Source of the DNA: a virus
Taxonomy: Duplodnaviria > Caudoviricetes
Length of the DNA stretch: 64,000 bases
Reading direction: 5' to 3' (one strand)
Virus record (IMG/VR): IMGVR_UViG_3300021387_000661
Span: 1 to 64,000 of that record
Of the stretch, positions 1 to 8,016 are shown one piece after another. The notes below the pieces were generated by a model. That model worked only from the letters and a program-made list of their open reading frames with translations, searched no databases and was not told the DNA's origin. Position 1 is the first letter of the stretch; every line of letters starts with the position of its first letter. The position numbers were made by a program, and so were the translations under genes.

Positions 1-196
1 TATAGTAAATATAATATTTTTTGTCTTTAATGTATTATATAAATTCCTTAAATTAATTCTTATTATAGGATTTATTATATTTTTATTTTACTTTATTTTC
101 TCTTAATGTGTATTATTCTTATAATATAACAAATAGGCCAAATGTAAAAATATGTAAATAATTAATACACAATTAGTTATAGTAAAAGTGTAAAAA

Positions 197-877
197 ATGA
201 GTATGAAACAGTCAGAAGCATTGAAGTATTTAAAAAGTGAGTTGACTTTCCTTAAACCAGAAACAAGGAAGGCAATAGAAACTTTACATCCGGAATTGGT
301 AGATAGTGATGATGAATGTAAAAGGAAAGGACTTCTATTTCATCTGAATGAACTGAAGGATTGGAAACCTGGAACAATGTCTCCAATCAAGACTCCAGAA
401 CATTATGAAGCCTGGATTGAATTAATTGAGAATATGAAGGAAGATAAAGATCCAAATCTTGATATCCTTTCCAGGTTCTCAATCTATAAGTATGATGATG
501 ACAATGACACTATCTACCTTGCTGATGTGTTTGTCGGAGAACATATACGGGGTAAAGGGAAAGGAAGGCAAATACTGAAGGTTGTTGATGAGATAGCAAG
601 ATTGTTTGAAGCAAAGTATATCTGTTTAAAGGTAAAGAAGGCAACATCTGCATATGAGTGGTATAAGAGGAATGGATATGAATATCATATGGATGATGGG
701 GATTATGTGTGGATGAAGAAGAAAGTTACTAAAAAACAAAATAAACACAAGTTTTGGAAACCAACAAAGGAACAACTTGATGCATTGGAAGTTTCAGCGA
801 CTTATGAAACTTGTATAGGCAATAGAGACCATCTCCTCGATCTATTGAGTGATTTGAGGGTGATATATGGTGATTAA
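197..877 (+). CDS. GNAT-family acetyltransferase domain fused to phage accessory segments
   Basis: GNAT motif A IYLADVFVGEHIRGKGKGRQIL and motif B AYEWYKRNGY; C-terminal WKPTKEQLDAL segment. Confidence 0.7.
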   Translation: MSMKQSEALKYLKSELTFLKPETRKAIETLHPELVDSDDECKRKGLLFHLNELKDWKPGTMSPIKTPEHYEAWIELIENMKEDKDPNLDILSRFSIYKYDDDNDTIYLADVFVGEHIRGKGKGRQILKVVDEIARLFEAKYICLKVKKATSAYEWYKRNGYEYHMDDGDYVWMKKKVTKKQNKHKFWKPTKEQLDALEVSATYETCIGNRDHLLDLLSDLRVIYGD

Positions 878-897
878 GTGAGATACATAAAAATATG

Positions 898-927
898 AGG
901 AGGTGATTAATAATCATCTCCTTTTTT
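898..927 (+). terminator. intrinsic terminator
   Basis: AGGAGGTGATT/AATCATCTCCT stem plus T tract. Confidence 0.75.
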
Positions 928-935
928 GTTATTTT
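925..935 (+). promoter_or_regulatory. promoter motif A TTTGTTAT(A/T)TT, representative copy (others at + 6174, 6979, 12220, 16854, 35137, 35873, 38199, 58486, 61913, 62700; - 123, 31673, 52437, 58458)
   Basis: 15 intergenic copies oriented toward gene starts, mostly non-structural genes; resembles the Bacteroidota -7 element TAnnTTTG. Confidence 0.8.
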
Positions 936-944
936 TCATATAGT

Positions 945-1109
945 ATGAAAGGTAATATTTATAGGGTGACATATAATGTAATAAAACAAGAAGCAGTTCT
1001 GCATATGCAGAATGGTGATGTTGTATATATACCTATGACGGAAGAAGAGTGGTCCAATGCACTCAAAGGTGATTTAATTGAGAACTTCAATAAAATTTTA
1101 GATGAGTAA
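945..1109 (+). CDS. small hypothetical protein (MKGNIYRV...)
   Basis: ATG at 945 directly after promoter motif A at 925-935; the track start at 903 lies inside a terminator hairpin. Confidence 0.6.
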   Translation: MKGNIYRVTYNVIKQEAVLHMQNGDVVYIPMTEEEWSNALKGDLIENFNKILDE

Positions 1110-1641
1110 GTATATCATTGTCGGTCCTGGCGCTTCTGGCAAGGACTGGATGCTACAAAAGATGAAGGAATTGGGTTATCACCCAATGAAACAATACACG
1201 ACAAGAGAAATAAGGGAGAATGAGACAGGTGATGAGTATCATTTTGTCTCTGAAGATGTATTCAAGGATATGGATGACAGAGCCAAGTTCATCTCTGTCA
1301 ATTTCTATCGTATAGGATGGTATGGAGTGTCTTATGATGAACTCATCAATTCTGATGTTGCCATTCTATCTCCTGCCAATGTAAAAGATATATTTAATTT
1401 ATACCCAGAGTTAAGAGACAGATTTACAATCATTTATCTTGATATTCCTGTCTCTATCAGAAGAGAAAGACTGAATGCAAGATATAAGAACAAAGTGGGT
1501 GATGATAATGAAGTAAGACTTGCAAATGATGAGAGAGACTTCAAAGATTTCACCCTCTGGGACATCAGATTTGAGGATGTAAAATCAATAGATAATTTCA
1601 TAAATAACTTATCCCCAAAATCAGTGGCGGATAAGGATTAA
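1102..1641 (+). CDS. gmk: guanylate kinase-like NMP kinase
   Basis: P-loop GPGASGKD, YTTR..RENE.G.EYHFVS, WYG motifs of guanylate kinases. Confidence 0.8.
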   Translation: MSKYIIVGPGASGKDWMLQKMKELGYHPMKQYTTREIRENETGDEYHFVSEDVFKDMDDRAKFISVNFYRIGWYGVSYDELINSDVAILSPANVKDIFNLYPELRDRFTIIYLDIPVSIRRERLNARYKNKVGDDNEVRLANDERDFKDFTLWDIRFEDVKSIDNFINNLSPKSVADKD

Positions 1642-1667
1642 TGTTTAACTTTTTAAAATATTTTTGA

Positions 1668-2330
1668 ATGAAGAAACTAAATCCTTGTGTTACAGGAAGT
1701 ACCAAAGTATGGACTGTTGAAGGTGCAAAATCTTTTAAAGATCTTGCTGATGCAAATGAAGATGTGGATGTGTATTGCCTGGATGGTGATGGTAACATTA
1801 AGGTGTCAAAAATGTTTCATCCAAGGGTGTCTGGGTATAACATTGCACTTGTGAAAATAACATTGGATAATGGAACTGTACTGAAAGCATCTTCCAATCA
1901 TATGTTCCTCACAAGTGAAGGGTATGTCTCTGCTGAAGATTTGTTTGAAGGTGATGACATCATAACATTGAAGAATAATGTATCACTACCTGAAACCATT
2001 GATGAGAAGGATAAACCATTTACAGAATATACAGGCACAAAGAAAGGTACTGTTATAAAGAAATGTGAAGTATCAGGTGAAGAGTTTGAATGTGTCTGGA
2101 ATGAAAGAGAGGTCTGCACCAGGGAAGGATATGAGGCAGATCTCTATAATATTAAACTCAAGAAGGTATGTACATCTTCTGACAATTATGAATATATGAC
2201 TGTTAAAGATGTTGAATTCCTTGATGAGAGGGAAAATGTTTACAATGGTACTGTTGCAGTATATCACAATTATTTCACCATAGATGAAAAAACTAATACA
2301 ATAGTCAATCAACTTAACTGTGGTGAATAA
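1668..2330 (+). CDS. free-standing intein (Hint domain) precursor with 6-aa N-extein and 3-aa C-extein
   Basis: MKKLNP/CVTGSTKVWT (block A); LKASSNHMFLT (block B His); VYNGTVAVYHNYF (block F); terminal QLN/CGE-stop. Confidence 0.85.
   Translation: MKKLNPCVTGSTKVWTVEGAKSFKDLADANEDVDVYCLDGDGNIKVSKMFHPRVSGYNIALVKITLDNGTVLKASSNHMFLTSEGYVSAEDLFEGDDIITLKNNVSLPETIDEKDKPFTEYTGTKKGTVIKKCEVSGEEFECVWNEREVCTREGYEADLYNIKLKKVCTSSDNYEYMTVKDVEFLDERENVYNGTVAVYHNYFTIDEKTNTIVNQLNCGE
1686..2318 (+). mobile_element. mini-intein (211 aa, no recognisable LAGLIDADG/HNH endonuclease), RNR NP/CGE-site type
   Basis: Cys1 codon 1686-1688, terminal Asn codon 2316-2318, +1 Cys; joined flanks read NPCGE. Confidence 0.8.
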
Positions 2331-2359
2331 AATATAATAAAATTAAAATTTAAATTTGT

Positions 2360-3703
2360 ATGATCAGAACAGTAATAAAACGAGATGGAACAAGTGCTCA
2401 CTTCCGTATTGAGAAGATCTACAATGTACTTGACAAGGCATTTGCTTCAAAGGAGATGGAAACTCCTGTTGAGGTATATGACTTCATCAAGGAATGGGTT
2501 GATGGTTATGAGGGAGACTCAATCAATGTTGAAGACATTCAGGACAAGATTGAGAAATACCTTATGAGATATTACCCATGTGTTGCAAAGAACTTCATCA
2601 TCTACAGGGCTGAACACAAGGCAATGAGGGAAGAGAAGAACCAACTTACCAAGGATGTGGAGAAGAAACTCCTTGCAAAGAATGTCGAGAACCAGAATGC
2701 CAATGTAGATGAAAATTCATTTGGTGGTAGAATGGGAGAAGTCACCAGGGTTGTTACAAAAGACTATGCACTCAAATATTGTATGAGTAAAAAGTCAAAG
2801 AACAATCACCTCAACAATGAGATTTATATTCATGATCTAGATTCGTATGCCGTTGGTAACCACAACTGTCTTTCAATACCTTTTGATGACCTTCTTGCAA
2901 AAGGATTCCACACCAGACAGACAGATGTAAGACCAGCCAACTCTATCAACACAGCAATGCAGCTTGTTGCTGTCATCTTCCAACTTCAGTCACTCCAGCA
3001 GTTTGGTGGAGTCTCTGCTACACATCTTGATTGGACTATGGTTCCATATGTGAAGAAGTCTTTCAGGAAACATATAAAGTCCTGGTTCAAAGATGTTGAG
3101 GGATATTCAAAAGAGGATGCGGAAAAGGTTGTGTGTGAACTTGAAGATACTTGGGGAGAACTTTGTTTTGAGAATGAAGGATTCAAAAAGAATTATCCTA
3201 AAATTTACAGATACGCATATGGTCAGACTGAATCTGAAACATATCAGGCAGTAGAAGGTATGTATCATAATTTGAATACCTTACAAAGTAGAAGTGGAAA
3301 TCAGTTGCCTTTCACATCAATCAACTATGGTACTTGTACTTCGCCAGAAGGAAGGATGGTAATACAGAAACTCCTTGAAGTATCAATTGCAGGTCTTGGT
3401 AAATTCCATAAGACTCCAATCTTTCCTTGTGGAATCTTCCAGTATATGAAAGGTGTCAATGACAAACCTGGAACACCTAATTATGATCTTTATCAACTGG
3501 CATTGAAATCTACTGCAAAGAGACTTTATCCTAATTATGCAAATGTGGATTGGTCAGGTAATACTGGAGAAGATAAGGTTAAGGATATAAAGAATGAGTT
3601 TCTTGAGAGCTTAAGTTCAGATGAAAAAAGTAAACTTTTATCTGCAATTAAAAATGATCCAAAGATTGCAGACGCATTGGGAATAAAAATAATAAATGAA
3701 TAA
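2360..3703 (+). CDS. nrdD: anaerobic (class III) ribonucleotide reductase, N-terminal polypeptide with ATP cone
   Basis: ATP cone VIKRDG; IYIHDLD...HNC; LNTLQSRSGNQLPFTSINYG; PIFP; YPNYAN; ends at TAA 3701-3703. Confidence 0.9.
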   Translation: MIRTVIKRDGTSAHFRIEKIYNVLDKAFASKEMETPVEVYDFIKEWVDGYEGDSINVEDIQDKIEKYLMRYYPCVAKNFIIYRAEHKAMREEKNQLTKDVEKKLLAKNVENQNANVDENSFGGRMGEVTRVVTKDYALKYCMSKKSKNNHLNNEIYIHDLDSYAVGNHNCLSIPFDDLLAKGFHTRQTDVRPANSINTAMQLVAVIFQLQSLQQFGGVSATHLDWTMVPYVKKSFRKHIKSWFKDVEGYSKEDAEKVVCELEDTWGELCFENEGFKKNYPKIYRYAYGQTESETYQAVEGMYHNLNTLQSRSGNQLPFTSINYGTCTSPEGRMVIQKLLEVSIAGLGKFHKTPIFPCGIFQYMKGVNDKPGTPNYDLYQLALKSTAKRLYPNYANVDWSGNTGEDKVKDIKNEFLESLSSDEKSKLLSAIKNDPKIADALGIKIINE

Positions 3704-3706
3704 TAT

Positions 3707-3763
3707 ATGGAGAAGATTTTAGCAAAAGATGACAGTCCAAAATGTTATTTCTCAACGATGGGT
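3707..3763 (+). CDS. nrdD: nrdD C-terminal polypeptide, exon 1 (MEKILAKDDSPKCYFSTMG)
   Basis: in frame with the upstream nrdD ORF after TAA-TAT; encodes YFSTMG, which joins CRT after intron removal; absent from the ORF track. Confidence 0.8.
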
Positions 3764-4635
3764 AAGTGTAAACTACAGCTCATCTAAAATCTTTTGAACC
3801 ATGCCAATGGGTATCCACATATGTGGGTTAACGGTTAGGTCCTGTAAATATTAATGCTGTTGTTTTATAGGATGAGACCGTGCCAAGAAACAAGAAACAA
3901 AAAGAATATGTATATTTACAAAATCACAAATAAAGTCAATGGTAAAGTTTATATTGGTCAGTCAATCAGACCAATTGAACAGCGATTCCAAAGACATATC
4001 AATGATGCTGTAAATAATATTCTTGACACTCATTTTGCAAGGGCAATAAGGAAATATGGAAAAGAGAATTTTTATATTGAACTTGTTGAGACTTGTGATA
4101 ACCAGACAGAACTCAATTTAAGAGAACAGTATTGGATTAGAAAATATGATAGTATCAATAATGGTTATAATGAAACAGATGCTATCAGTAAGTGTGGAGG
4201 AAACACATATATGTCCAAGACTGAAAGTGAGATGAAGGAAATTTCTGAAAAGATAAGTAAAACAAAACTTGGAAGTAAGAATCCACATTCAAGATCTGTC
4301 AAGGTTTTCAATATAGTGACAAATGAAGAAAAGGTGTTTGATACTGTAAATGATTGTAGGAAATTTTTTAATGAGAAGAATCACAGATTCATAACAACAA
4401 GGTTACAAAATCACTATATAAGAATGAGTGGAAGATTGCTTATACTGAAGATGAATACAGAGAGTTCAGTATAGGTGTTCACCGTGAAAGAACCAGGTGG
4501 GAATATCTTGTTTAAGGTGTATCGACTATCCCTGATGAATGTAAGGGAGTAGGGGTGGGACAGGCTCCACTTCGAAGCGGAAGACTACAAAAGTAGAAGA
4601 TATAGTCAGTGCCAATGGTAACATTGGATAAAATG
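3764..4635 (+). mobile_element. group I self-splicing intron (872 nt) in nrdD
   Basis: P1 GATGGGT(3757-63)/GCTCATC(3778-84) with U.G at the splice site; P7 GACTA 4524-28 with S element AAGATATAGTC 4597-4607; P9 CCAATG-GTAA-CATTGG 4612-27; omega G 4635; splicing restores STMG/CRTANG. Confidence 0.92.
3908..4474 (+). CDS. intron-encoded GIY-YIG homing endonuclease (probably frameshifted near 4402)
   Basis: MYIYKITNKVNGKVYIGQS, RFQRH, E.YWI...NGYN catalytic motifs; NUMOD-like tail. Confidence 0.85.
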   Translation: MYIYKITNKVNGKVYIGQSIRPIEQRFQRHINDAVNNILDTHFARAIRKYGKENFYIELVETCDNQTELNLREQYWIRKYDSINNGYNETDAISKCGGNTYMSKTESEMKEISEKISKTKLGSKNPHSRSVKVFNIVTNEEKVFDTVNDCRKFFNEKNHRFITTRLQNHYIRMSGRLLILKMNTESSV

Positions 4636-5655
4636 TGTAGAACAGCTAATGGATGGGATGCAAACTGGGAGGAATCCTGGAAGAATGCAGTCAAGACAGT
4701 CATTGAGACTGGTAAGTTAAATACTAATGTGCTGGAATCAGCAAGAGCAAAGGATGGTAGGGGAAACATCTGTCCTGTAACCATCATTATGCCTACTCTT
4801 GCTATGGAAGCAGACAGGGATGTTGAGAAATTTATGAAACTCCTTGACAAGAAGATTGGTGAAGCAAAGGATATGCTCATTGAAAGATTTGAGTGGATTT
4901 GTTCACAGTCTCCAAAGTCTGCTGACTTTATGTATATAAATGGTACAATGGCAGGTTATGTTCCTGAAGAAGGTATCAGGTCTGCTTTGAAGCATGGAAC
5001 TTTGGTTATTGGCCAGCTTGGTCTTGCTGAAACTCTTCAACTTTTGATTGGTAAGAACCAATGCACAGAGGAAGGTATGGAACTTGCAAAGAGAATTGAG
5101 CAGTTATTTAAAGACAGATGTGCAGAATATAAACAGAAATATAGTCTCAACTTTGGTGTTTATTATACACCTGCTGAAAATCTTTGTTATACTGCACTTA
5201 AGAAGTTCCGTGATAAGTATGGTGTGATTGAGAATGTGTCTGACAGGGAATATTTCACCAACAGCATCCATGTTCCTGTATGGGAGAAGGTAACTCCATT
5301 TGAGAAAATTGACATTGAGTCACAGTTGACTGGATACAGTTCAGCAGGTTGTATCACTTATGTTGAACTCCCTTCAACAGTACTTCATAACATTGAGGCA
5401 CTTGAGACTATTGTTAATTATGCCATGGACCATGACATCCCTTACTTTGCAGTCAATACACCAAATGACCTTTGTACCAATTGTGGATATCAGGGTGAAC
5501 TTGGTGAGACTTGCCCTCAATGTGGAAGTTCAAAAATAGACAGACTTCGTAGAGTCACCGGATATTTGACTGGAAATTATTTGACAGCATTTAATCTTGG
5601 AAAGCAGGATGAGGTTAAGGATAGAGTAAAACATAATAAAGAGATAATAGTTTAA
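4636..5655 (+). CDS. nrdD: nrdD C-terminal polypeptide, exon 2
   Basis: CRT catalytic Cys, GRGNI, TPAENL, YFTNS.H, CTNCG...CPQCG Zn site, glycyl-radical loop RRVTGYL. Confidence 0.92.
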   Translation, partial: CRTANGWDANWEESWKNAVKTVIETGKLNTNVLESARAKDGRGNICPVTIIMPTLAMEADRDVEKFMKLLDKKIGEAKDMLIERFEWICSQSPKSADFMYINGTMAGYVPEEGIRSALKHGTLVIGQLGLAETLQLLIGKNQCTEEGMELAKRIEQLFKDRCAEYKQKYSLNFGVYYTPAENLCYTALKKFRDKYGVIENVSDREYFTNSIHVPVWEKVTPFEKIDIESQLTGYSSAGCITYVELPSTVLHNIEALETIVNYAMDHDIPYFAVNTPNDLCTNCGYQGELGETCPQCGSSKIDRLRRVTGYLTGNYLTAFNLGKQDEVKDRVKHNKEIIV

Positions 5656-5657
5656 TT

Positions 5658-6140
5658 ATGAAATATGAGAGTATTACTACATCAGATGTAAATAATGGAT
5701 TGGGTTGCAGGGTTACCTGTTGGATTAGTGGTTGTACTCATCATTGTAAAGGTTGCCACAATAGAAAGACCTGGAGTTTTAATTCTGGAAGGATATATAA
5801 CCAAAATGTTGAGGATGTTCTTTTCAATGAGATTGATAAACCATATATCAAAGGTTTGACATTGAGTGGCGGTGACCCCCTTGACAGTCCTGATGGTGTA
5901 CTGGAACTTCTTCAACATTTCAGAGAAAGGTTTGGAAGCACAAAGGATGTGTGGATCTATACAGGATACACTTATGAATACTGTAAGGAACACTTTCCAG
6001 AAATCCTTGAATTATCAGACATTCTGGTAGATGGGATGTATGAATGTACAAAGAGAGACACATCACTGGCATTCAGAGGAAGTTCAAACCAGAGAATCAT
6101 TGATTTGAAGACTGGTGAAGACATCAGTTCAAAGTTATAA
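5658..6140 (+). CDS. nrdG: anaerobic RNR activating enzyme (radical SAM)
   Basis: GCTHHCKGCHN (CxxxCxxC), LSGGDPL, WIYTGY, FRGSSNQ; directly after nrdD. Confidence 0.93.
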   Translation: MKYESITTSDVNNGLGCRVTCWISGCTHHCKGCHNRKTWSFNSGRIYNQNVEDVLFNEIDKPYIKGLTLSGGDPLDSPDGVLELLQHFRERFGSTKDVWIYTGYTYEYCKEHFPEILELSDILVDGMYECTKRDTSLAFRGSSNQRIIDLKTGEDISSKL

Positions 6141-6143
6141 ATG

Positions 6144-6176
6144 AAATTGGGGAGATGATTAAGTCTCCCCAATTTT
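6144..6176 (+). terminator. intrinsic terminator after nrdG
   Basis: AAATTGGGGAGA/TCTCCCCAATTT stem. Confidence 0.8.
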
Positions 6177-6191
6177 GTTATTTTTAATGTT

Positions 6192-6947
6192 ATGAAGGAG
6201 TTGAATAAGATTTATAATGAAGATTGTCTTGTTGGTATGAAGGATATACCTGACAAGTCAATTCATTGTATCATAACATCACCACCATATAATGTTGGTC
6301 TTGATTATGATGAGTATAAAGACAATAAACCATATGAAGATTATCTTCATTGGATGAAAGAAATCTTTTCAGAATCATACAGAGTCTTGACAGATGATGG
6401 TAGGATGTGTGTGAATATAGGTGATGCAAAGAATGGTTCAATACCAACACACTCTGATTTTATTCAAATTGCAAAGGAAATAGGATTCCATATACTCACC
6501 ATAATCATATGGAATAAGAACACAACAAGTAACAGATGTGCCTGGGGAAGTTTTATGAGTCCTTCATCTCCTTCATTTCCAAGATGTTTTGAGTATATAT
6601 TGGTATTTTGTAAATCACCAAAACTCATTCACAAGGGAAAGATAACAATTGAGAAAAAGGAATTCATTGATTGGAGTAATGGTATGTGGAGTTTCAATTG
6701 TGAGAACCTGAAAAAGATAGGTCATCCTGCTGCATATCCTGTTGAACTTCCAAAAAGATGTATAAGGTTATTCACATATGAAGATGATGTAATACTGGAT
6801 CCATTTATTGGAAGTGGTACGACTGCGATTGCCGCAATTATGGAAAACAGGAGATTTATAGGGTTTGAGATGAGTGAAGATTATTATAAGATTGCAGAAG
6901 AGAGGATAAATAACTTACAAAGTGAATTGTCAGAAAAATTGTTTTAA
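6192..6947 (+). CDS. orphan beta-class amino (N4-C/N6-A) DNA methyltransferase
   Basis: catalytic TSPPY precedes SAM-binding DPFIGSGTT; HPAAYP. Confidence 0.9.
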   Translation: MKELNKIYNEDCLVGMKDIPDKSIHCIITSPPYNVGLDYDEYKDNKPYEDYLHWMKEIFSESYRVLTDDGRMCVNIGDAKNGSIPTHSDFIQIAKEIGFHILTIIIWNKNTTSNRCAWGSFMSPSSPSFPRCFEYILVFCKSPKLIHKGKITIEKKEFIDWSNGMWSFNCENLKKIGHPAAYPVELPKRCIRLFTYEDDVILDPFIGSGTTAIAAIMENRRFIGFEMSEDYYKIAEERINNLQSELSEKLF

Positions 6948-6995
6948 TTGAAAGAATGATTTGGGATTGTCATTCTTTTTTGTTATTTTTGTATT

Positions 6996-7259
6996 ATGAA
7001 ACGGGATTATAGTCTCATACATCTTATTAACAATTATAAGAATGAAGATGGTTCTTCCAAGTATGATTATGTTGGAAGTACCATCTGGTTCAGTAAACAG
7101 GAACTTTGTGATGAAGTCAGTGAGTTCCTTGGTATTGATATTCCTCTTGAGATAAAAGTGGATGTGACCAGAGAACAGATGGAGAGTGTTTGGAAGTTAC
7201 TTGATGACAGGAAAGACTTGATTGGAATGTATGGTGATGATTTTTTGAATGAGTGGTGA
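6996..7259 (+). CDS. hypothetical protein
   Basis: ORF directly after promoter motif A at 6979-6989. Confidence 0.6.
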   Translation: MKRDYSLIHLINNYKNEDGSSKYDYVGSTIWFSKQELCDEVSEFLGIDIPLEIKVDVTREQMESVWKLLDDRKDLIGMYGDDFLNEW

Positions 7260-8016
7260 TATGGAAGAAAAGAAATTGAAAATAGTAGGAATCAGTGACA
7301 CACATGGTCTGTTACCTGAACTCCCAGAGTGTGATGTTGTCTGCTGTGCAGGTGACATCAGTCCTCTTGAATATCAGGGTGACCAGACACAGATGGTATC
7401 CTGGTTCTGTCTGGAGTTTCTTCCTTGGGTTGAGTCTCTTCCTTGTAAAAAATTTGTGATGATTTCTGGCAATCATGACTTCTTCTTACAGAATATCCAC
7501 AGGAGATTGATAGATGAATCTGATGGATACAGGAGATATACCTGGAGAAGTGCATCTGATGTTATGAAGAAACTCCTTCCTGGTAACTTGAGAGGTAAGT
7601 ATAATAAGTTGGTATACCTGTGTGATTCTTCTTATGAGTATGAAGGTCACAGGTTTTATGGTACACCTTGGATTAGGGACTTATCTATGTGGGCATTTTA
7701 CCTTGATAATGACACTCTTATGGAGAAGTACAAGAACATTCCAAAGAAGTGTGATGTGATTATCACCCATATGCCTCCAAGGATTGAAGGTCTTGGTGAA
7801 GTCATCCAGGGTGGATGTTTCAACACAGGTGCAGATTATGGTTCTCCTGAACTGGCAGAAGTGTTGAAGACCAGGGATTTCAAGTATGCATTATGTGGAC
7901 ATGTTCATTCAGGTCAGCATCTTCCTGTTGAACTTGATGGGAAGAAGTTGGTGAATGTATCATTGAAGAATGAAGATTATAATGAAATGTATTATCCTTT
8001 TGAATTTGAGATATGA
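7249..8016 (+). CDS. calcineurin-like metallophosphoesterase (intact motifs)
   Basis: SDTHG, AGD, GNHD, THMPP, GHVH. Confidence 0.88.
   Translation: MSGDMEEKKLKIVGISDTHGLLPELPECDVVCCAGDISPLEYQGDQTQMVSWFCLEFLPWVESLPCKKFVMISGNHDFFLQNIHRRLIDESDGYRRYTWRSASDVMKKLLPGNLRGKYNKLVYLCDSSYEYEGHRFYGTPWIRDLSMWAFYLDNDTLMEKYKNIPKKCDVIITHMPPRIEGLGEVIQGGCFNTGADYGSPELAEVLKTRDFKYALCGHVHSGQHLPVELDGKKLVNVSLKNEDYNEMYYPFEFEI

Follow-up and report, generated by a model that had tools for sequence, protein, structure and literature searches.

The free-standing intein gene

The window analyzed here spans positions 1 to 64,000 of IMG/VR record IMGVR_UViG_3300021387_000661 (Duplodnaviria, Caudoviricetes), a virus sequence of 344,746 bp that is rated 94% complete. 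Near its start lies a small gene for an intein that has no host protein. The original prediction described a 220-aa open reading frame (ORF) reading MKKLNP, intein, CGE, stop, and the ORF list, Pfam, and alignments all agree with this description. The ORF starts with ATG, stops with TAA, and has the layout MKKLNP / C7VTGSTKVW ... N217 / CGE. Its parts are given below.

1668 to 2330, plus strand: whole free-standing intein gene, in the form that we call type 1; 220 codons plus TAA (ORF list, Pfam, homologues, substitution rates)
1668 to 1685, plus strand: micro N-extein MKKLNP, in which Asn5-Pro6 correspond to the finger-loop residues that precede the thiyl Cys in class II ribonucleotide reductase (RNR)
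1686 to 2318, plus strand: intein proper, Cys7 to Asn217, 211 aa, a HINT fold with an inserted Cys-rich domain (AlphaFold2, Foldseek)
1890 to 1901, plus strand: block B, S75-S-N-H78, the TxxH motif, with Thr first in most relatives (alignments)
1974 to 2183, plus strand: insert domain, about residues 103 to 172, located where a homing endonuclease would be; a remodeled zinc-ribbon/treble-clef remnant
2238 to 2318, plus strand: blocks F and G, VYNGTVAVYHNYF ... NQLN217, with a terminal Asn and a penultimate Leu (no His) (alignments)
2319 to 2330, plus strand: micro C-extein C218-G-E and TAA stop (alignments)

The protein matches the Pfam family Intein_splicing (PF14890) with an E value of 8.5e-13 (48.8 bits, against a cutoff of 35.8) and, more weakly, PT-HINT (E = 3.3e-7). 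Block F reads V191YNGTVAVYHNYF203. The AlphaFold2 model, computed from an alignment with 29 relatives, has a mean pLDDT of 91.5 and a pTM of 0.88. Its top PDB matches in Foldseek are all mini-inteins, namely Ssp DnaB, Ssp DnaE, Mtu RecA, Npu DnaE and DnaB, and the NrdJ-1 split intein, with a probability of 1.00 and TM-scores by target of 0.74 to 0.86. Pfam gave no nuclease match, and the protein lacks a recognizable nuclease domain of the kind that homing elements carry. On neither strand does another ORF of 80 aa or more overlap the gene; therefore, there is no hidden out-of-frame endonuclease.

The window gene has the HINT fold, the Cys1 nucleophile (Cys7 of the protein), block B, and the C-terminal Asn followed by a +1 Cys that characterize a class-1 intein. 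However, it is not placed in frame in a host protein that splicing would restore, and its exteins are only 6 and 3 residues long. By that standard, it is an intein by descent, not in the functional sense.

The reductase had been predicted to be gone. The class I/II RNR family PF02867 gave no match in the whole 344,746-bp genome, and 12 of 14 control genomes gave matches. There is also no room for a host gene at the locus, because the spacers around the intein gene measure only 26 nt to the stop of an upstream kinase-like gene (1641) and 29 nt to the ATG of the next gene (2360). The latter is the class III RNR gene nrdD, as predicted and as identified by Pfam NRDD.

Descent from reductase inteins and conservation of the gene

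We searched 1.84 billion cluster representatives exhaustively with HMMER and obtained 1460 matches. Those that extended along the full length, insert included, were inteins in PF02867 RNRs of 790 to 1100 aa. These embedded relatives include P0145, P0198, P0166, P0156 to P0158, and 19 viral loci (L021 to L089), and some of the embedding RNRs bear class II markers (a B12-RNR insertion domain or TSCPD). The original prediction had named NPCGE as an RNR intein insertion site, and the sequences of the embedded relatives bear this out. In every embedded relative, the 19 viral loci too, the junctions read ..(T/C)NP/C...(N/Q)/CGE.., where the slashes outside parentheses mark the splice points. Identity to the window protein is 26 to 36% in the alignment, with E values of 1e-16 to 1e-20 in the representatives search. 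The cellular carriers are scattered environmental bacteria and archaea, at no more than 43% identity, and no gut Bacteroidales genome was among the cellular carriers found. In a maximum-likelihood tree, the free-standing forms make up one clade (support 100/99) that is sister to the embedded inteins. Within this clade, P0124 branches first, and then P0121. By homology and by the same flanking extein residues, the gene is an allele of the intein at the RNR NP/CGE site. It descends from a class-1 mini-intein lineage at this thiyl-cysteine site of class II-type RNRs.

No member of the lineage, embedded or free-standing, has a penultimate His, and all have Asn in place of Asp in block F (VYNGTV). 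Because the embedded relatives, which must splice, also lack both residues, their absence is a lineage trait. Read from the alignments, it does not mark the phage copy as inactive.

Conservation in the protein is highest over F118-K163, within the insert, a segment that had been interpreted as a zinc-ribbon remnant and not an endonuclease. At this place, the embedded relatives carry a four-Cys ribbon, CExCG...RE..(F)CSxxC, with sub-threshold Pfam matches to zf-FCS, YacG, DUF2116 (treble clef), and Ribosomal_S27e. The insert of the window protein has no Pfam match, even below threshold, and no His, and it aligns to this ribbon. C133-E134 and R147-E148 are common to free-standing and embedded forms. 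Among the zinc ligands, C133 is unambiguously kept and C150 lies near the third, and the second (S136) and the fourth (Gly-Tyr) are replaced. The four-ligand pattern CxxC ... CxxxC is complete in the embedded relatives, partial in P0121 and P0124, and lost in the window. The sequence comparison thus supports derivation of the insert from a zinc ribbon rather than an endonuclease, in agreement with the earlier interpretation.

The free-standing forms, both deep lineages included, conserve G123-T-K-K-G-T128, E141-C142, W144, C150, and L159 at 96% or more, and these positions are variable in the embedded inteins. The TKKGT hairpin was gained, and the new Cys142 is fixed. By this comparison, the insert has gained rather than lost constraint. 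Folded alone, the insert has a pLDDT of 60.6, too low for a fold search, compared with 85 to 96 within the full AlphaFold2 model; it seems to depend on the Hint core, on which it probably packs.

Two queries of a 5.8-billion-protein collection returned 228 and 215 clusters. All homologous clusters are 217 to 231 aa long, and many are on contigs of 200 to 412 kb. The gene is not an assembly artifact, because more than 200 independent metagenomic assemblies carry it. Every fetched locus has the same nucleotide-metabolism block of kinase-like gene, intein, nrdD, and nrdG. This synteny reaches the deep relatives L007 (51% identity) and L008 to L011 (43%). The order is intein, kinase, nrdD for P0121 (51% identity); P0124 is a 43% relative. 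Among the clade members fetched, there was no presence/absence polymorphism at the locus.

We estimated ratios of nonsynonymous to synonymous substitution (dN/dS) by the pairwise Nei-Gojobori method (NG86). The intein gene has a dN/dS of 0.07 to 0.22 at dS values of 0.15 to 2.7. The corresponding ranges are 0.03 to 0.21 for the kinase-like gene and 0.02 to 0.11 for nrdD and nrdG. The orthologue comparison that the original prediction proposed thus found purifying selection, with the micro-exteins kept in type 1 orthologues. Its preference for domestication over decay is borne out by dN/dS values like those of the kinase neighbor and by the retention of length and synteny down to 43% identity.

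The conserved positions include the splice junctions. C7, H78, N217, C218, G219, and E220 are nearly invariant among 123 sequences, and the only exceptions are single clusters with C1R or N217T. Type 1 and the RNR-resident relatives all have N5 and nearly all have P6, with variation at residues 2 to 4. Every free-standing or RNR-resident relative has H78, and almost every one has N77, with Ser or Thr three residues before H78. No type 1 member has lost CGE, which is also present in the relatives at 51% and 43% identity, and C-extein lengths range from 3 to 12 residues. The junction codons vary synonymously (Pro CCT/CCG, Gly GGT/GGA/GGG, Asn AAC/AAT).

The dN/dS values, synteny, length, and tree together show that the intein gene lost its host a single time, in the distant past, and was retained from then on. 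It is inherited vertically at one locus in a clade of 340- to 410-kb gut phages, under purifying selection as strong as that on its neighbor.

Type 2 forms and the surrounding locus

A derived subfamily that we call type 2, represented by one IMG/VR locus (L020) and 27 protein clusters, has lost the C-extein. In 26 of the 27 clusters, a variable leader of 7 to 16 residues ends in Cys, directly followed by Cys1 (..xC/CVTG..); the remaining cluster is 5'-truncated. All 27 end in ..NQ(M/F/Y/L)(N/D)-stop, directly after the terminal Asn, which is Asp in 4. The DNA 3' of the type 2 stop is TGATGGTGAA, i.e., TGT GGT GAA plus one A, and T(G/A)A TGG TGA (A/G) follows the intein at all four loci examined. 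From this reading, type 2 lost CGE via a 1-nt insertion. It has no +1 Cys, Ser, or Thr and cannot ligate exteins. We considered whether frameshifting or readthrough restores the C-extein in type 2 and rejected the idea: a +1 shift gives D/N-G-E, which lacks the Cys nucleophile, and the DNA has no slippery site.

Type 2 has a dN/dS of 0.10 to 0.18, and its locus and length are unchanged. Because type 2 is equally constrained and has no C-extein, selection on the gene is independent of ligation and of the nonapeptide. The same observation disfavors two roles that had been proposed for the gene, as a source of a Cys nonapeptide and as a decoy homing site. The ancestral Asn-Pro drifts in type 2, where it no longer abuts Cys1. 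This suggests that Asn-Pro in type 1 is constrained through its position at the scissile bond. The features common to all members are Cys1, block B, blocks F and G, an N-terminal leader, the insert, and a second Cys by the N-terminal junction. This second Cys is Cys+1 (in three dimensions) for type 1 and Cys-1 (in sequence) for type 2.

In type 2 loci, a non-coding TGGTGA(A/G) remnant is kept (L020 4670 to 4685, and after the intein stop in L096, L097, and L098) despite saturated synonymous sites. The stop/start overlap T(G/A)ATG opens a mini-ORF of 5 to 7 codons (MVNNI, MVNNFFI). A TATAAT-like ATATAATA ahead of nrdD is common to type 1 and type 2, and the stretch that holds it and the remnant may be the nrdD promoter region.

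The other features of the window locus are as follows.

1102 to 1641, plus strand: guanylate/deoxynucleoside monophosphate kinase-like gene, a conserved neighbor (Pfam Guanylate_kin; synteny in all loci)
1599 to 1606, plus strand: CATAAATA motif, a candidate phage promoter, within the 3' coding end of the upstream ORF and 69 nt before the intein ATG
1643 to 1649, plus strand: GTTTAAC, part of the conserved (A/T)RGTTTAAYTT, 15 to 25 nt upstream of the intein ATG
2360 to 5655, plus strand: class III RNR gene nrdD, interrupted, the conserved downstream neighbor (Pfam NRDD, ATP-cone, Gly_radical; tblastn with an intact relative)
5658 to 6140: nrdG, downstream of nrdD

The original prediction had pointed to CATAAATA as a motif about 60 nt upstream. 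The motif is indeed present at 1599 and occurs genome-wide upstream of genes; this copy, though, lies 69 nt away and inside the upstream coding sequence. The genome has 85 copies, whereas about 46 would be expected over both strands, and 47 of the 85 lie 10 to 40 nt before an ORF that starts with ATG and is 80 aa or longer. CATAAATA is probably a phage promoter element, and the copy at 1599 is a plausible promoter that is atypically placed. Its conservation may be due to coding, as it lies in the last kinase codons. The motif (A/T)RGTTTAAYTT (window 1640 to 1655) is found upstream of the intein gene in 8 of 9 related loci, including L004, L007, and L012 to L016. GTTTAAYTT is rare genome-wide, with 12 copies.

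The nrdD gene of the window is interrupted. Positions 2360 to 3574 align with residues 1 to 439 of an intact relative. An in-frame insertion follows, with a TAA at 3701 to 3703, a restart ATG, and a 19-aa piece that ends in YFSTMG (to about 3765). Next comes an intervening sequence of about 870 nt that holds a GIY-YIG endonuclease ORF (3854 to 4474), and coding starts again at CRTANG, near 4636. Positions 4523 to 4607 resemble the T4 nrdD intron region. An Rfam search of window positions 1 to 8000, at E values up to 0.1, found no RNA family, group I introns included; in the same search, the intein ORF is not within any recognizable intron. The relatives L004, L016, L096, and L098 have an intact nrdD. 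L012 has NUMOD3-type and GIY-YIG insertions, and L007 and L008 have different ones.

The genome holds only one other intein, an ordinary one of the LAGLIDADG type. It lies outside the window in a C5 DNA cytosine methyltransferase (G000:C1:172521-174371, plus strand), at catalytic motif IV (..FTYSSP/CFVAGT...VHN/CQSFSLAGK..).

Relatives of NrdD were found at 5 loci in the viral scan and in 6 of 81 genomes in a sample of one bacterial order. The Thomasclavelia ramosa phage TR-TP2 (L001, PQ571310.1), which is in culture and has a genome of about 100 kb, carries at 3659 to 6782 an nrdD with about 70% DNA identity to that of the window. An HNH endonuclease gene interrupts this nrdD, and no intein gene precedes it. 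A blastn match had made TR-TP1 and TR-TP2 candidates for intein carriers. We rejected them, as nrdD is the only region that they have in common with the window and they contain no intein (best tblastn E value of 0.58). The NrdD of the window family carries a Met-Gly-Cys finger loop, which we take to be typical of formate-dependent class III enzymes that would need no redoxin. When the intact NrdD of L016 was modeled in complex with the intein of that locus (P0005), the score was 0.04, compared with a mark of 0.32, a result that we count neither for nor against an interaction.

The locus is mosaic. Between L012 and L016, the 5' parts of nrdD are near-identical (dS of 0.02), and the adjacent intein and kinase genes have dS values of 0.74 to 1.06 (0.74 for the intein). 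The window and L016 have the reverse pattern, with a dS of 0.15 in the intein and 1.0 in nrdD. This mosaicism indicates frequent recombination between co-circulating phages. On the tree, type 2 is nested in type 1 in two places, which fits recombination among such mosaic phages better than two identical origins.

Interpretation and relation to known systems

We favor the view that the gene is a domesticated, free-standing RNR intein kept by selection, which would encode a self-processing Hint protein with thiol/thioester chemistry at the old splice site. On the evidence of sequence, this is moderately probable. Type 1 retains all class-1 catalytic positions, and the protein is probably still self-processing. 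In this scenario, Cys7 would undergo an N-S acyl shift to form the N-terminal thioester, Cys218 would accept the acyl group, and Asn217 would cyclize. The reaction would release the 211-aa Hint protein and the by-product MKKLNPCGE. The selected function may reside in the Hint body or its precursor together with the remodeled Cys-rich insert, with its TKKGT hairpin and the residues C133, C142, and C150, rather than in the ligated peptide. The likeliest selected chemistry would be that of a thiol or thioester at the old splice site, as conditional redox- or metal-gated self-cleavage or acyl transfer. This activity may serve the phage anaerobic nucleotide-metabolism module.

More specifically, the splice-site chemistry may have been exapted as a whole. 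The Cys1 thioester, the extein-side Cys, and the insert could act as a redox- or metal-gated self-cleaving switch or as an acyltransferase in the anaerobic supply of deoxynucleoside triphosphates (dNTPs). We put this forward tentatively, as one possibility. If it is true, the intein was retained for its own chemistry and not for the repair of a host protein.

Several observations weigh against the interpretation that we favor. The protein has neither the penultimate His nor the block F Asp; this is true of the embedded relatives as well, yet it leaves the rate of splicing uncertain. In a few single clusters, a catalytic residue is replaced (C1R, N217T). Splicing of type 1 would remove Cys218 along with the nonapeptide, so that a paired thiol could act in the precursor only, which makes the paired-thiol idea indirect. 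The GGTGAA of the C-extein stays conserved as non-coding DNA in type 2, and part of the conservation of CGE in type 1 could be at the DNA level, e.g., in the nrdD upstream region. A link to anaerobic dNTP synthesis is suggested by synteny alone. NrdD has the Met-Gly-Cys loop of formate-type class III enzymes, and a distant 386-kb phage, as well as TR-TP1 and TR-TP2, has nrdD without the intein gene. Given this loop and the related nrdD genes without an intein gene, we down-weighted a role as a redoxin for NrdD.

The protein could instead be a non-catalytic exapted fold, a binding or structural module without self-processing, in which the splice-site residues persist as fold stabilizers. This would fit the finding that the highest, newly gained conservation is in the insert rather than at the splice site. 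It would also fit the inability of type 2 to splice and the Asp that replaces the terminal Asn in four type 2 clusters. However, type 1, type 2, and both deep lineages have Cys1 and the block B His without exception. The N-extein is never shorter than 6 residues, and no member begins with a bare Met-Cys; a Cys occupies position -1 in every type 2 member once Cys+1 is lost. These three features argue for selection on the chemistry of the site, and we consider a purely structural role rather doubtful.

A specific version of the domesticated-intein interpretation makes the protein an accessory of the anaerobic reductase that would work with NrdD/NrdG through thiols or a metal, for example as a redox sensor, metal chaperone, or switch that responds to oxygen damage. 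The intein gene is always beside nrdD/nrdG, its ancestor resided in an RNR, and the cysteines C7, C37, C133, C142, C150, and C218 are conserved in a phage of strict anaerobes. But the synteny may be mere inheritance from a lost nrdJ, phages without the intein gene have a related nrdD, and NrdD appears, from what we take to be typical of its family, to be formate-dependent. We judge such a role improbable.

Much less probable is a selfish or mobile gene, either an unorthodox free-standing homing element (compare the yeast WHO elements beside FBA1) or a passenger of nrdD-invading endonucleases. The nrdD of this clade is a hotspot of endonuclease and intron insertions (see also PMC12880540), the locus has recombination mosaics, and type 2 occurs in two places on the tree. 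Against this, the protein has no nuclease motif, its degenerate zinc-ribbon insert lacks His, there is no nested ORF, and presence/absence polymorphism was not seen among the clade members fetched. Homing also would not select for Cys1, block B, or the N-extein.

It is hardly credible that what matters is the ligated peptide MKKLNPCGE, or a displayed mimic of the RNR finger loop acting as a decoy or inhibitor, with the intein only making it. N5, P6, C218, G219, and E220 are conserved with no RNR function to explain them. However, type 2 has a variable N-extein, no CGE, and equal constraint. In addition, residues 2 to 4 vary, C-exteins have 3 to 12 residues, and most of the constraint is in the intein body. 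There is a negligible chance that the gene is a neutral leftover from a recent deletion, or an artifact of assembly or annotation, given hundreds of independent assemblies, an intact gene at 43% identity with saturated dS, and a dN/dS of about 0.1 to 0.2; only the prior expectation that host-less inteins decay can be cited in favor.

Inteins are usually seen as parasites that survive only because an essential host protein would be ruined if they were removed imprecisely. In this phage no such protein is left, yet the intein persists, with its catalytic residues and minimal exteins, across a prevalent clade of jumbo phages of the human and animal gut. This one-time genetic parasite probably now benefits the phage. 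The clade is therefore a natural system for asking what an intein does for its carrier, and type 1, which is predicted to be capable of splicing, and type 2, without a C-extein, form a ready-made mutant series. A compact natural intein with exteins of 3 and 6 residues may also interest protein engineers. For annotation, the gene is a warning that Intein_splicing ORFs near fragmented genes are not necessarily insertions.

The phage of the window is very probably a member of the Jug (jumbo gut) group. Jug phages have genomes of 360 to 402 kb and infect Bacteroides/Phocaeicola; their nrdD is fragmented in 95 of 104 genomes, and they have 26 Intein_splicing proteins, all encoded by stand-alone genes (PMC12880540). 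These are probably the same genes as the family described here. In that paper, they are regarded as putative inteins or as insertions that separate gene fragments, with no mention of micro-exteins, RNR loss, selection, or the two forms. A full-text literature search found nothing on free-standing, orphan, stand-alone, or extein-less inteins, and for domesticated inteins it found only papers on HO/WHO and on conditional splicing.

The split inteins, or fractured genes, of phage metagenomes (NrdJ-1, PDB 8ubs) are likewise phage RNR-associated mini-inteins, and 8ubs is a structural match to the window protein. However, they consist of two halves, each fused to half of a real RNR, whereas the window gene is one ORF with both junctions and no RNR. 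Bacterial intein-like (BIL) domains, Hedgehog/Hog Hint domains, and pretoxin-HINT domains also use the HINT fold for autoprocessing or acyl transfer and not for restoration of a host enzyme, and type 2, with Cys1 and no +1 nucleophile, is formally like an A-type BIL. In contrast to the window protein, these are domains of larger proteins with real flanking domains. Sequence and tree place the window protein with true RNR inteins, which are its nearest relatives; type 1 has a +1 Cys, and BIL structures rank below inteins in Foldseek.

The embedded NP/CGE RNR inteins share with the window gene full-length homology, the residues at -2/-1 and at +1 to +3, VYNGTV, the lack of a penultimate His, and the CE..RE of the insert. 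They must splice to give an enzyme, whereas the window form has exteins of 6 aa and 3 aa and no RNR in its genome. The window intein ends in Asn, and most embedded RNR inteins end in Gln. The yeast HO/WHO genes are stand-alone intein-derived genes with a LAGLIDADG nuclease, no exteins, no motif G, and no splicing (PMC7282813). Like the window gene, they are intein-derived, kept by selection, and located beside rather than inside another gene; they are independently expressed and carry a zinc-binding module (PMC7282813). The window gene differs in having no nuclease and in the presence of motif G, Cys1, the terminal Asn, and micro-exteins. The HO/WHO family is thus the closest concept, and the embedded NP/CGE RNR inteins are the closest sequence family. 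For a domesticated intein or Hint protein, the window gene is unusual in keeping the splicing apparatus and micro-exteins after the loss of both the host gene and the endonuclease.

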